From the NCBI GenBank assembly GCA_015059445.1, contig SVAK01000002.1:36698-100697 (forward strand): a DNA stretch of 64,000 nucleotides, written 5' to 3'. Source of the stretch: Bacillota bacterium (lineage in GTDB: Bacteria; Bacillota_I; Bacilli_A; RF39; UBA660). A program made the translations under genes and the position numbers. Below the pieces are notes generated by a model, which saw nothing but the letters and a program-made list of their open reading frames with translations, made no database searches and was not told the origin of the DNA. This document shows, one piece after another, positions 47,323 to 52,632 of this stretch. How positions within the stretch are numbered: the stretch's first letter is position 1; each line of letters starts with the position of its first letter.

Positions 47323-47397
47323 GCAGGTGTAGTATAATGGTTAATATATAACCTTGCCAAGGTTGAGATGGGAGTTCGATTCTCCTCACTTGCTCCA
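47323..47397 (+). tRNA. tRNA-Gly (GCC)
   Basis: GCAGGTG...CACTTGC-T-CCA; TAACC-TTGCCAA-GGTTG. Confidence 0.92.
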
Positions 47398-48502: not shown

Positions 48503-51500
48503 TTAATAATATTTTTGAATTTTTACTTCTGCTACATTATCATTAGAAGTAACATTTAATAATAAATCGCACTTATCTAATTCACATAAATCAGCTAATG
48601 TTTCGTTAGAAATGTATTGTAACATCTTTTCAGTTAAATTAGATTTGATTTCTAATTTAATTCTTTCACTAATTTCAAGATTTAAACTTTTTCTTCCATC
48701 TTGAATATTTCTTACGATTTCACGAGCCAATCCCTCTTCTTTTAACTCTTCTGTTAAAATTGTATCTAATTTAATTACAATTTCATTATCATTAGCAACA
48801 GAGCAATCTGATTTTGATGTATATCTTACAACTAAATCTTCTGATGAAAAAACTTCACCATTTGAAAGTTTATATCCTTTATCTAAAATTTCAAAACTTT
48901 TATTCTTAATTAAATTACTAACTTCTTTCATATTTTTACCATATTTAGGTCCAAGAGTTTTAAAATTAGGTAAATATTCTACATTAGCAATTTCTGCAAC
49001 TTCATTTAAAATACAAATATCTTTAATATTTACTTCTTCACAAATTGTTTCTTTAAACTTATTTACAATAGAACTATAATCTTTTGTAAATGCAACTTCA
49101 ATTTTTGAAAGCGGTTGTCTAATTTTGATATTTTCTTTTTCTCTTAGATTTCTTGTTAATGAAATTACTCTTTGAATTACTTCTGTTTCTTTTAAAATTT
49201 GCTCATTTTTAAACTTAACATTAATACTACACCAATCACTTAAATGAATAGAATTATCTTTAGTTAAATTTTTATATAAATATTCAGAAATAATAGGTGT
49301 AACTGGTGCTAATAATTTACAAATATTAACTAACACGTAGTATGTTGTTTCATATGCATTTTGTTTATCTTTTGTAAATTCAGATTCCCAGAATCTTCTT
49401 CTTGATCTCCTTAAATACCAAGAACTAAATCCATCAATTAATTCTACAATTGGCTCAACATAATTATCAATTTGATAATTATTCATATTTTTTGTAACTT
49501 CTTTTTCTGTATGATATAATTTTGCTAAAATCCATTTATCTAATTCATTATCAGATGATGGCAATTTAACATTATCTGGTTCAAATTTATCTAAAATCGC
49601 ATATGAATTAAAGAAGCTTGCACAATTATATAATGGCAATAAAACTTGTTGAACTTGTTCCTTAATTCCTTTTTCATCGAACAATAAATCATTCATAATA
49701 ATGGCATTCGACCTAAATAGATACAATCTAAAGGCATCGGTTCCATAAGTTTTCATAAGTTCCATTGGGTCAGTATAATTCTTTGAAGACTTAGAAAGTT
49801 TCTTTCCATCTTTAGCTAAAATTGTTCCATGTACTACACAATTTTTATATGCCGGTTTATCAAATAATGCTACAGATAATACATGTAAGTAGTAGAACCA
49901 ACATCTAATTTGTCCAGTATATTCAACTATGAAGTCTGATGGGAAATGATTTTCAAACCATTCCTTATTTTCAAATGGATAATGTTTTTGAGCAAAAGGA
50001 ACTGAACCGGATTCAAACCAGCAATCCAATACTTCTGGAACTCTTCTCATAGTTCCGCCACAACTACATCCAAACTCGACTTTGTCCATAAATTGCCTAT
50101 GTAAATCTGTTAATATAACACCACTTACATTTTCGATTTCATCAATACTTCCTAATACTTTTCTCTCATGACATTCATCACATTCCCAAATTGGAATTGG
50201 TGTACTCCAATATCTATTTCTTGAGATATTCCAATCTCTTGCATTTTCTAGCCACTTTCCAAATCTTCCATGTTTAACATTATCAGGAATCCAATTGATT
50301 TCTTCATTACATTCAATTAACTTATCCTTGATTTTCTCAATACTAAAATACCAAGCATCCATTGCTTTATAAATTAAAGGCGTCTTACATCTCCAACAAT
50401 GCGGATAATTATGTACGAGAGTTCCCTCTAAAATAACTTTGCCACTTGCTTTTAGGAATCTAAGCACATCTTGATTCACTTCCATAACGTTTTGACCTAC
50501 AAAATCAGTAATTTGTTCTGTGTATCTACCTTTTTCGTCAACAGGACAAACAAGAGGTATATTGTTTGATTTGCATACCCAATAATCATCTTCACCAAAT
50601 GCAGGTGCAATGTGAACGATTCCAACACCTTCATCTAATTCGACAAAATCTGCAGAAATTACTTTGAAAGCACCATCATTCTTTTTGTCCTCAAAGTAGT
50701 TCATCAATGGTTCATAAGATATCCCAACTAATTCACTACCTTTAATAGTTTTTACTACTTTAGGTTCATCTCCAAGAATCTTAGTATATTTACCTAATAG
50801 AGTGCTTCCTAAAATATAAACTTCATTTTCGACTTCAACATAAGCATATTCAAAATCGTTATTTACTGCTAGAGCCATATTTGAGAATAATGTCCATGGA
50901 GTTGTTGTCCACGCTAACAAATATACCGGTTTATTATTGCATGTTTCTTTGATTTTAAATTTAGCAATACACCAAGTATCTTGTTTTGGCCTTGTAGAAT
51001 CTGATTCTCTAGTATCTGAAATAGAAAGTGCAGTTTCACATCTATAGCAATATGGAGTAACTCTGTAATCTTGATAAATCAAGCCTTTGTTATAGCACTC
51101 TTTGAATGCCCACATAACACTTTCCATAAATGGTGTATTCATTGTTTTATAAGCATTATCATAATCTACCCATCTGCACATTTCTCTAACATATTCACGC
51201 CAAGAATCATTGTTGTTTGACACAATACTATGGCAACAATCATTGAACTTATCAATTCCAACAGATGATTCGATTTCTTTCTTATCGTTGATATCTAAAA
51301 GTTTTTCTGCTTGAGTTTCAACCGGTAATCCATGACAATCCCATCCCCAAACTCTAGGTACCGAATGACCATTCATAGTATGATATCTTGCTATCATATC
51401 CTTAATGAATGAAACTAGCACTGTACCATGATGAGGTTTTCCTGTTGGGAATGGTGGCCCATCATAAAAAACTATTTCTTTTTTATCCTTGTTTTTTAAC

Positions 51501-51604
51501 GACTTCAAAAAAGTCTTATCTTCTTCCCAAAACTTCAACATGTCTTCCTGCATCCTTGGAAAGTTAGGGTTATTATCTAATTTGCTAAACTTCATTTTAT
51601 TCAT
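48503..51604 (-). CDS. ileS: Isoleucyl-tRNA synthetase, type 2 (IleRS2)
   Basis: YDGPPF, GWDCHGLP, WTTTPWT, DWNISRNRYW, KLSKS; IleRS2-type C-terminus (EEGLAREIVRNIQ); no C-terminal Zn finger. Confidence 0.95.
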   Translation of the reverse strand: MNKMKFSKLDNNPNFPRMQEDMLKFWEEDKTFLKSLKNKDKKEIVFYDGPPFPTGKPHHGTVLVSFIKDMIARYHTMNGHSVPRVWGWDCHGLPVETQAEKLLDINDKKEIESSVGIDKFNDCCHSIVSNNNDSWREYVREMCRWVDYDNAYKTMNTPFMESVMWAFKECYNKGLIYQDYRVTPYCYRCETALSISDTRESDSTRPKQDTWCIAKFKIKETCNNKPVYLLAWTTTPWTLFSNMALAVNNDFEYAYVEVENEVYILGSTLLGKYTKILGDEPKVVKTIKGSELVGISYEPLMNYFEDKKNDGAFKVISADFVELDEGVGIVHIAPAFGEDDYWVCKSNNIPLVCPVDEKGRYTEQITDFVGQNVMEVNQDVLRFLKASGKVILEGTLVHNYPHCWRCKTPLIYKAMDAWYFSIEKIKDKLIECNEEINWIPDNVKHGRFGKWLENARDWNISRNRYWSTPIPIWECDECHERKVLGSIDEIENVSGVILTDLHRQFMDKVEFGCSCGGTMRRVPEVLDCWFESGSVPFAQKHYPFENKEWFENHFPSDFIVEYTGQIRCWFYYLHVLSVALFDKPAYKNCVVHGTILAKDGKKLSKSSKNYTDPMELMKTYGTDAFRLYLFRSNAIIMNDLLFDEKGIKEQVQQVLLPLYNCASFFNSYAILDKFEPDNVKLPSSDNELDKWILAKLYHTEKEVTKNMNNYQIDNYVEPIVELIDGFSSWYLRRSRRRFWESEFTKDKQNAYETTYYVLVNICKLLAPVTPIISEYLYKNLTKDNSIHLSDWCSINVKFKNEQILKETEVIQRVISLTRNLREKENIKIRQPLSKIEVAFTKDYSSIVNKFKETICEEVNIKDICILNEVAEIANVEYLPNFKTLGPKYGKNMKEVSNLIKNKSFEILDKGYKLSNGEVFSSEDLVVRYTSKSDCSVANDNEIVIKLDTILTEELKEEGLAREIVRNIQDGRKSLNLEISERIKLEIKSNLTEKMLQYISNETLADLCELDKCDLLLNVTSNDNVAEVKIQKYY

Positions 51605-51616
51605 CCTCTCTTAATT

Positions 51617-51654
51617 AAAAAACTCGATTAGTTATATAGTGCTAATCGAGTTTT
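51617..51654 (-). terminator. Attenuator terminator upstream of ileS
   Basis: AAACTCGATTAG-loop-CTAATCGAGTTTTTT. Confidence 0.85.
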
Positions 51655-51725
51655 ATTTATATGTATATCAACTTATCTCTTATAGCACTAACGACAAAAC
51701 CGCATGTGCCATATAGACACATACG

Positions 51726-51770
51726 CTAACGTATTATTATCACTATATTAAATAAGTTGCCTTTGTTCAT
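51726..51770 (-). CDS. Leader peptide MNKGNLFNIVIIIR of the ileS attenuator; not in the ORF track
   Basis: SD GGAGAGG at 51782-51776; codons ATA GTG ATA ATA ATA near the 3' end. Confidence 0.75.
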   Translation of the reverse strand: MNKGNLFNIVIIIR

Positions 51771-51799
51771 AAATACCTCTCCAATCGAGTTCCAATAAA

Positions 51800-51829
51800 A
51801 TTATAATACTTTAACATTATTTTTGTCAA
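51800..51829 (-). promoter_or_regulatory. Consensus SigA promoter of the ileS leader
   Basis: TTGACA-18 nt-TATAAT. Confidence 0.8.
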
Positions 51830-52020
51830 TTTAATTCTTCTTATTACCCTTATTAAATATCATTATTTCCATAAAATCTTGCAAAAGTTGTTTATATTCT
51901 GAAAGTAATACTTTCTTTACACAATACCGCATAAATTTGATAATATCAAACAATAAATAATAAAAACATTTGATGTAAAATTTTAAAAGCATAAATGCTT
52001 TTCACACTTATGCTTTTTTA

Positions 52021-52632
52021 TTAATTAATTTTATGTAACAATGTTTCTTTACCATTTGAATCTATACCATATAAATCATGTGAAACGTAATCGCCGGATA
52101 CTGGCATTAGTTTAAATGATACAATATCTTTAGCTTCTAATTTTTCAAATGAAATTTCAAAAGAAAATTGATAATTAATATCTTGTTCTGACATATACAC
52201 GTTGCCATCAGTAGTTAAGATTAATAAATATGCACTTCCTGCACAGCATACAGGTCTTGTTGCGATATTTTTAACTGGTTCTTTATCAAAAATCATTTTT
52301 TCTTCATTTGTTTTTAAGTTTTTTGCATATAATTTATTATTTTTTATATATGTTTTATATTCAACTAATTCTTCTGAACTATTACCATGGTTAATTGCAT
52401 CTACTTCTGATTTTAATTCAATTTCCTCTGCTATTGCTTCATCATCTTCAAATTTATTTTCACCATTTGAATCACCATCAGTTGCATTATTTGAATTATT
52501 ATTACTACATTCTACATTCGAAGATTTAAAACTTATGGTTCCTGTAGCAAATAAAACACATAATATTGACAATATAACAATGATTACAACAAGTAACGCT
52601 ATTACTCCTTTATTATTTTTTTGATTCTCCAC
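52021..52632 (-). CDS. Membrane-anchored extracellular hypothetical protein
   Basis: N-terminal TM helix, Asn-rich linker, beta-rich domain (LLILTTDGNVY). Confidence 0.75.
   Translation of the reverse strand: MENQKNNKGVIALLVVIIVILSILCVLFATGTISFKSSNVECSNNNSNNATDGDSNGENKFEDDEAIAEEIELKSEVDAINHGNSSEELVEYKTYIKNNKLYAKNLKTNEEKMIFDKEPVKNIATRPVCCAGSAYLLILTTDGNVYMSEQDINYQFSFEISFEKLEAKDIVSFKLMPVSGDYVSHDLYGIDSNGKETLLHKIN

Follow-up and report, generated by a model that had tools for sequence, protein, structure and literature searches.

A predicted leader-peptide attenuator, in place of a T-box, upstream of a type-2 isoleucyl-tRNA synthetase gene in a 1-Mb Bacillota genome

In this study we analyzed ileS-B, a gene for a type-2 isoleucyl-tRNA synthetase (IleRS), and the leader region in front of it, both located on the minus strand of a 64,000-nucleotide stretch of Bacillota bacterium DNA (GTDB lineage RF39; contig SVAK01000002.1), hereafter called the window. 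The window is part of a 124-kb contig of the genome (G000) of a small gut bacterium; this genome comprises 1.02 Mb, with a GC content of 27% and a completeness of 95%. The IleRS-B protein scored 890.7 bits against TIGR00392 (cut-off 621.4) and is composed of tRNA-synt_1, Anticodon_1, and DUF5915 (852-1031) domains. The assignment to type 2, initially made from the DNA alone (the sequence-only reading), is borne out by this IleRS core, by the DUF5915 C terminus, which in our own reading marks type-2 enzymes, and by the lack of a CxxC motif in the last 200 residues. The first in-frame ATG of the gene (51604) abuts its Shine-Dalgarno (SD) sequence (AGAGAGGA, 51611-51604), whereas ATG 51595 is normally spaced (8 nt) and yields a protein of 1030 aa that matches database proteins of the same length; the real start is therefore probably 51595.

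The leader elements, together with the other features referred to below, are collected in Table 1. The promoter is the sole site with a 12/12 consensus match among 14 promoter-like sites between 50600 and 52700, and the gene upstream has its own hairpin and U run (approximately 52019-51977), indicating that the leader is a separate transcription unit. All four Ile codons of the 14-codon open reading frame (ORF) are ATA (51746-44, 51740-38, 51737-35, and 51734-32), and they are arranged as ATA GTG ATA ATA ATA, that is, four Ile within the five codons preceding the last sense codon. The central hairpin with its GUUUUGU tail was itself scored as terminator-like in a scan for promoter and terminator sites. 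The promoter, SD, ORF with four ATA codons, hairpin, and terminator thus all lie where the sequence-only reading had placed them. The two mutually exclusive pairings that it had proposed are exact as well, both by complementarity and in the minimum-free-energy fold: UAGUGCUA (51690-51683) is the perfect complement of UAGCACUA (51644-51637), and in the alternative state 51759-51752 pairs with 51676-51669 and 51747-51743 with 51685-51681, both helices being present in the minimum-free-energy fold. Searches gave no match to the T-box (RF00230) or any other Rfam family at gathering score over the window, nor up to E = 10 over 51400-52100, in agreement with the claim that the leader has no T-box.

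Table 1. Features of the ileS-B locus (window coordinates) and of ileS T-boxes at related loci (coordinates of each locus)
Feature	Position	Strand	Remarks
Sigma-70-type promoter	TTGACA 51829-51824, 18-nt spacer, TATAAT 51805-51800	minus	12/12 consensus match
R0, 5'-untranslated region (5'-UTR) copy (GGAACUCGAUUGG) of terminator 5' arm	51793-51781	minus	Overlaps start of leader SD; can pair with terminator 3' arm
Leader-ORF SD, GGAGAGG	51782-51776	minus	5 nt upstream of ATG; direct sequence reading
Leader ORF (MNKGNLFNIVIIIR), 14 codons + stop	ATG 51770, TAG 51728-51726	minus	
R1, leader coding part pairing with R2 if ribosome-free	51759-51736	minus	Free-fold helices 37-46/118-127, 49-54/110-115, 57-60/104-107
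Central hairpin, 10 bp, then GUUUUGU	51725-51701	minus	Directly 3' of leader stop; candidate RNA polymerase pause hairpin
R2, switch segment	51696-51669	minus	Partner R1 (terminated) or, via 51690-51683 + 51679-51677, R3 (antiterminator)
R3, terminator 5' arm (51653-51642) + part of loop	51653-51637	minus	R2 partners 51650-51648 + 51644-51637; 8-bp perfect + 3 bp
R4, terminator 3' arm (51631-51620)	51631-51617	minus	Last three pairs reach into six-U run 51622-51617
Intrinsic terminator	Stem 51653-51642 with 51631-51620, 12 bp, then six U to 51617	minus	ileS SD follows directly; terminator end about 12 nt upstream of it
ileS-B, type-2 isoleucyl-tRNA synthetase	48503-51604	minus	HHGT at HIGH position; KLSKS motif
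AAA_18 kinase-like P-loop gene, 185 aa	47589-48146	minus	Just downstream of ileS-B
ileS T-boxes of Lachnospiraceae-type loci	L059 188-421; L062 1120-1319; L075 1188-1425; L085 1186-1425		Rfam

A stalled ribosome was mimicked by masking 29 nt around an Ile codon in constrained folding, and the window was compared with two related leaders described below, L131 and L057 (L-numbers denote fetched loci). In the free folds of all three sequences, R1 pairs with R2 across the central hairpin and the terminator R3:R4 is formed, which is preferred by 6-13 kcal/mol. In the masked folds, R2 pairs with R3 and R0 with R4, and this stalled-state fold beats the best terminator-enforced fold by 3.1-4.1 kcal/mol; in the window, the best fold under Ile-codon masking drops all 12 terminator pairs and becomes an antiterminator. 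The helix between R2 and the terminator 5' arm and loop has 8+3 bp in the window, 15+3 bp in L131, and 19 bp in L057, while that between R0 and the terminator 3' arm has 13 bp in the window (51632-51620, in every Ile-masked fold), 11 perfect bp in L131, and 5+6 bp in L057, so that the helices keep their pairing despite differing sequences across three lineages. The R0:R4 helix, a second antitermination helix, had no place in the sequence-only account. R0 nearly duplicates the 5' arm of the terminator in the window and in L131, and the L131 R0 is even a better match for the terminator 3' arm than the genuine 5' arm is; from these predicted folds we infer that R0 is a decoy that would keep the 3' arm once R2 occupies the 5' arm.

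The leader (191 nt) folds with -54.4 kcal/mol, compared with -32.6 ± 3.4 kcal/mol for shuffled sequences (z = -6.4; none of 200 shuffles was as stable), and when the upstream 141 nt were dinucleotide-shuffled 300 times, the flip from terminator to antiterminator was reproduced just twice, which together indicate that the arrangement is not due to chance. Among 3248 SD-preceded short ORFs genome-wide, 19 contain at least four Ile in five codons, and two of these, the ileS-B leader included, have a terminator-like hairpin within 190 nt.

On the basis of these models, we propose, with a probability of about 80%, that a ribosome-mediated leader-peptide transcription attenuator sets ileS-B expression according to the supply of charged tRNA-Ile. 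Every computational test run supported this core of the sequence-only reading, namely, an Ile/AUA leader-peptide attenuator before a type-2 IleRS gene in place of a T-box. The sequence elements are conserved in three lineages, all of which show the thermodynamic switch, and from this we infer leader translation, polymerase pausing, ribosome stalling, and the cellular response as follows. Transcription would start at approximately 51793, and the hairpin after the leader stop codon would probably pause the polymerase until the ribosome arrives, in analogy to the pause hairpin of the trp leader, which couples polymerase and ribosome. When Ile-tRNA is plentiful, the ribosome would complete the 14 codons and leave, R1 would pair with R2, and the terminator R3:R4 would form and stop transcription before ileS-B. 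When Ile-tRNA is short, which here concerns the species that reads AUA, most likely lysidine tRNA-Ile2, the ribosome would stall in AUA GUG AUA AUA AUA and cover R1; R2 would then pair with the terminator 5' arm and loop, R0 would capture the freed 3' arm, and ileS-B would be transcribed.

Approximately 150 ileS-B-like loci were fetched and examined for the leader, and the same layout was found in two further groups. The first consists of five near-identical metagenome contigs (L131 to L135; 27-28% GC), the IleRS of which shares 72% protein identity with IleRS-B. These contigs share the 5'-UTR string AACUCGAUUGGAG with the window and contain a -10-like TATAAT, and their leader ORF (MKKVGFNKLNNIAIII) reads ATA GCA ATA ATA ATA (4/4 ATA, four Ile in five codons) and is followed by hairpin, switch segment, and terminator; in an alignment of the window, L131, and L132, the leader DNA has a mean column identity of 84%. 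The second is L057, from a metagenome-assembled genome (MAG) labelled Lachnospiraceae (G041; 1.1 Mb), with 60% protein identity to IleRS-B. Its leader, MKNLIISIII, uses ATC ATT ATA ATA ATT (five Ile in six codons) and has the same order of parts in a different primary sequence, which MAFFT did not align with the others. The L057 gene is the sole ileS found in G041, a genome that also has TilS and T-boxes elsewhere. Both L131 and L057 have UUGGAG ahead of the leader ATG, and the central hairpin is located at the same place in both with differing sequences. An SD-preceded, Ile-rich ORF is thus conserved at the same position before homologous ileS genes in three lineages, and the stems are retained with different letters in L131 and L057, both in line with the sequence-only reading. 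A covariance model built on the window and L131/L132 matched the L057 leader over its full length with 24.5 bits; its other matches below E = 0.28 (99 sources plus L132) were only the training leaders and their palindromic reverse strands. The leader DNA had no match in plasmids.

Contigs approximately 93% identical to the window were found in four gut metagenome runs, covering ileS-B and the leader up to 51792-51805; the two long contigs differ from it at 84 and 83 positions in about 1200 nt. In two runs, the contigs diverge from the window beyond 51792 and have a different promoter sequence there, and the end of similarity just upstream of R0 fits a transcript beginning at R0. One gut-metagenome contig has 8 differences over the 189 nt of the leader, compared with about 7% over the whole stretch. 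Gene neighborhoods differ among all three leader-bearing lineages, suggesting that the leader and ileS travel as one unit.

T-boxes occupy the position of the leader at other orthologues. Of 11 orthologues tested, four (L059, L062, L075, and L085) have an Rfam T-box directly upstream, with 67-77 bits and E <= 2e-12, and seven have no Rfam T-box. With scores short of the Rfam gathering threshold (93), these divergent ileS T-boxes would escape standard annotation. A fuzzy T-box pattern that found 10 of 10 controls likewise misses those at 67-77 bits, and its 3 hits among 149 are an undercount. By eye, T-box features were recognized at L139, L147, L176, and L235, and neither T-box nor leader was found at L234 and L236. 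The Lachnospiraceae-type ileS T-boxes (L059, L062, L075, L085, L139, and L147) have in common a divergent core that reads GGUGGUAUAA where GGUGGUACCGCG is usual. Since T-boxes precede other orthologues, and since in both G000 and G041 they also stand ahead of further synthetase genes, a sensor of tRNA charging would be expected at this position. A quick tree of 39 rows, among them one badly translated sequence (L069), joins the window to L131 and L134 (100) and L057 to one T-box locus and one sensorless locus (100); T-box loci are spread throughout, including a basal branch. Judging from this distribution, the T-box seems to be the ancestral sensor, which a leader peptide has displaced in one lineage or two; the tree does not separate one origin from two. 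As a separate observation, 60 relatives of the genome of L057 (G183 to G242; most of those drawn first have genomes of 0.8-1.3 Mb) each have a single ileS match, whose identity to the L057 enzyme is 59-70%, about 40%, or about 34%; these three classes form a pattern that suggests repeated IleRS gene replacement in this lineage.

Several points weigh against an attenuator read by the ribosome. L057 still folds into the antiterminated state when the ribosome is masked on the stop codon, so that in our model its decision rests on ribosome release, which is beyond the reach of folding energies; more generally, the folds are equilibrium predictions and not co-transcriptional kinetics, and the R0:R4 helix spans about 150 nt. 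The SD-to-ATG spacing in L131 is long (11 nt). The leader is known in three lineages only, of which G000 and the L131 type are clearly homologous; the covariance model had no match in any of 150 further genomes from the class of the window (one more was unscored) or at any of about 90 other ileS-B-clade loci. In the tree, the leader-bearing genes are not one clade, and the nearest relatives of L057 have a T-box or nothing. Finally, the support is drawn from sequence and predicted folds.

Three alternatives were considered in the light of these points. The RNA could be a real switch that is set by an RNA-binding protein, a small ligand, or an uncharged tRNA sensed other than through a T-box, the ORF being incidental. 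The structure is strong enough to stand alone (z = -6.4), translation of the leader is predicted from its sequence, and Ile-rich short ORFs are common in AT-rich regions, as the 19 in this genome illustrate; nevertheless, the SD-preceded Ile-run ORF recurs at the same place in three lineages, with a differing sequence in L057, the segment that flips the fold when masked is precisely the one with the Ile run, the regulated gene encodes the Ile-tRNA synthetase itself, and no Rfam family matches the leader, which together make this alternative unlikely. Still less credit is given to the view that nothing is regulated here, i.e., that a leaky constitutive terminator or an mRNA-stabilizing hairpin occurs in AT-rich palindromic DNA in which complementarity is cheap. 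The rarity of the element (three lineages among the approximately 150 loci) would fit this view, and regulation is predicted from sequence; against it, the leader of G000 and the L131 group retains 84% mean column identity where the proteins are 72% identical, the gut-metagenome contig mentioned above has fewer differences in the leader (8/189 nt) than the approximately 7% of the whole stretch, the flip is reproduced by only 2 of 300 shuffles, and L057 keeps the pairings with different letters. It is highly improbable, too, that the leader encodes an arrest peptide of the erm/cat type, with a ribosome-targeting antibiotic stalling the ribosome on the hydrophobic NIVIII tail. The Ile/Val-rich C-terminal tail may resemble those of erm leader peptides, and the topology, in which a stalled ribosome frees a downstream segment, is the same, but the downstream gene encodes an aminoacyl-tRNA synthetase and not a factor for ribosome protection or modification, the Ile run is the sole feature common to the three peptides, and orthologues use Ile-specific T-boxes.

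Two full ileS genes are present in the host genome, ileS-B in the window and ileS-A on contig C15 (L001, 1216-4533); the two proteins are 38% identical, and both have the type-2 C terminus (DUF5915, no CxxC). ileS-A is preceded by a T-box (RF00230, 101.3 bits), the specifier of which we read from the sequence as AUC; the string AUCAC is also visible in the T-boxes of orthologues inspected by eye. G000 has 10 T-box matches in total, one before ileS-A and at least three directly upstream of other class-I synthetase-like genes, indicating that T-box control is the norm here. Each of 24 same-genus genomes gave one ileS match only, with 37-40% identity to ileS-B, and at 24 of 24 same-genus loci tested this match was 67-90% identical to ileS-A and 36-39% to ileS-B. 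ileS-B itself was not found in 30 genus relatives, whose genomes are 70-94% complete, so that "not found" is to be read rather than "absent"; as a second ileS of this distribution it fits the proposed role of a backup IleRS. Its relatives in species-representative genomes (54-69% identical over the best segment) come from MAGs labelled Oscillospiraceae, Lachnospiraceae, or Clostridia, and metagenome protein records reach 70-93% identity to IleRS-B. HHGT occurs at the HIGH position in 80 of 80 loci with an N terminus at least 60% identical to IleRS-B, and GLHH or GVHH in 12 of 13 ileS-A-type loci. Because the relatives are of the Clostridia type and the gene was not found in genus relatives, ileS-B looks horizontally acquired. 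The AAA_18 gene just downstream was likewise not found in the 30 genus genomes and may be part of the same imported segment; a tRNA-Gly gene (47323-47397) adjoins it.

The sequence-only reading had also considered ileS-B as a resistance IleRS, a suggestion for which we found no specific support. IleRS-B scored 738.6 and 725.4 bits against the MupA and MupB NCBIfam exception models, far below the cut-off of 1900, and is 37.9% identical to plasmid MupA. Both host enzymes are type 2, and it is the resident IleRS-A whose HIGH motif reads GLHH, fitting the [A/G]xHH variant that a 2026 preprint links to mupirocin hyper-resistance (10.64898/2026.02.03.703510). The term "backup" therefore fits ileS-B better than "resistance."

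The proposal that the leader senses the minor AUA-decoding tRNA-Ile is plausible but unproven. In its favor, the leader is all ATA. AUA is not rare in this genome, since ATA makes up 39% of Ile codons in G000 (40 per 1000 codons, 4% of all codons). The ATA share of Ile codons is 4.5% in EF-Tu, 8% in a putative RpoC (1220 aa), and 9.5% in a likely S3 (all three identified from their first 30 residues only), AUA being the most avoided codon in this usually highly expressed gene set. In ileS-B, 6 of 73 Ile codons are ATA, its most deviant codon (p ~4e-9), and 3 of 577 genes are as low; the L131 ileS has 4 of 69, compared with 52-66% in flanking genes. The 4/4 ATA of the leader thus runs counter to the codon usage of ileS-B itself. 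The depletion as such was rejected as proof of an AUA-specific design, because the T-box-controlled orthologues L139, L173, L176, L235, and L147 are depleted too. Relative to neighboring genes, depletion of ATA was seen in ileS at leader loci and T-box loci but not at several loci without a recognized sensor, which may mean that ileS genes regulated by Ile-tRNA share it in general. The L057 leader mixes ATC, ATT, and ATA, so the family as a whole does not sense AUA specifically, and the L057 ileS is undepleted (24-25 of 70-73). In addition, the window and L131 leaders are homologous and count as one observation, and several third-position A residues pair with R2. We therefore regard AUA-specific sensing by the leader as possible, with the odds against it.

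The AUA reader of the host is probably lysidine tRNA-Ile2, given the presence of TilS and three CAU tRNA genes. It is conceivable, though rather unlikely, that the genome has a two-sensor circuit in which the T-box of ileS-A reads tRNA-Ile(GAU) and the all-AUA leader of ileS-B reads only the single-copy lysidine tRNA-Ile2. If so, the nearly AUA-free ileS-B could remain translatable when AUA decoding fails, and its product would restore the reading of AUA or charge tRNA-Ile2 in preference to the other isoacceptor. G000 also has a gene for tRNA-Ile(UAU), a rarity discussed for Mycoplasma mobile (PMC3575796). It is located at 34176-34251 of contig C13 and flanked by HNH homing-endonuclease genes; no close copy was found in 24 genus relatives, with one partial match of 37 nt (84%) in G010. 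The 35-kb contig C13 (L229, L230, and L211), a phage or prophage, contains terminase, portal, tape-measure, tail, serine integrase, and RNA ligase/kinase-phosphatase genes, which identify the tRNA as a phage gene outside the ileS-B system. A dedicated pair of tRNA-Ile(UAU) and IleRS-B was accordingly rejected, as the tRNA is phage-borne and unlinked to ileS-B and TilS is present.

Leader-peptide attenuation of synthetase genes is exemplified by pheM-pheST of Escherichia coli. The ileS-B leader shares with it, and with the predicted trpS and leuS attenuators of Streptomyces, a leader ORF with cognate codons, a terminator, a competing antiterminator, and a synthetase gene. It differs in the amino acid, in the phylum, in the extra segment R0 able to capture the terminator 3' arm, and in the regulatory codons, which in ileS-B-type leaders are the last or last-but-one sense codons of the ORF. 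The enterobacterial leaders ilvL/ivbL and leuL respond to stalling at runs of branched-chain codons, the run in leuL consisting of rare CUA codons. As in these leaders, terminator and antiterminator would be selected by ribosome stalling, and leuL provides a precedent for the use of one synonymous codon; unlike these leaders, which belong to biosynthetic operons of Proteobacteria, the ileS-B leader would control a synthetase in a reduced Bacillota-like genome. With the ileS T-box (RF00230) it shares position, gene, and logic, in that low charging of tRNA-Ile leads to terminator readthrough, but it lacks Stem I with its specifier and the T-box sequence, and its sensor would be the translating ribosome instead of direct tRNA binding. 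Two IleRS genes in one genome are also found in Priestia megaterium, where, in one study (10.1101/2022.02.09.479832), T-boxes are described before both ileS1 and ileS2, one being housekeeping and the other inducible by uncharged tRNA-Ile; that pair comprises type 1 and type 2 under T-boxes, whereas both G000 enzymes are type 2, 38% identical, and preceded by two kinds of sensor. A 2005 comparative study (PMC1262725) records classical attenuation ahead of pheST and, in Streptomyces, ahead of trpS and leuS, and states that no synthetase gene of Firmicutes is known to be controlled in this way. No report of a leader-peptide attenuator before ileS was found in the literature searched, which misses most subscription journals, so that a prior report is possible. 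Our verdict is that the element is most likely a ribosome-mediated attenuator of the classical kind, new both for ileS and for any synthetase gene in Bacillota, and that it is notable for its position at ileS in place of a T-box, for its decoy arm in the 5'-UTR, and for being paired with a T-box-controlled paralogue.

In Bacillota, control of synthetase genes by T-boxes is textbook knowledge. A sensor read by the ribosome where orthologues carry a T-box makes the two gauges of tRNA charging look interchangeable in evolution, and the ileS-B locus would offer a compact natural system for comparing them. The all-AUA leader turns the separate monitoring of isoacceptors into a testable question, and the decoy of the terminator arm in the 5'-UTR is a design feature of interest for other attenuators. 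For the organism itself, the retention of two type-2 IleRS with different sensors in a genome of 1 Mb raises the question of what role the second enzyme plays.

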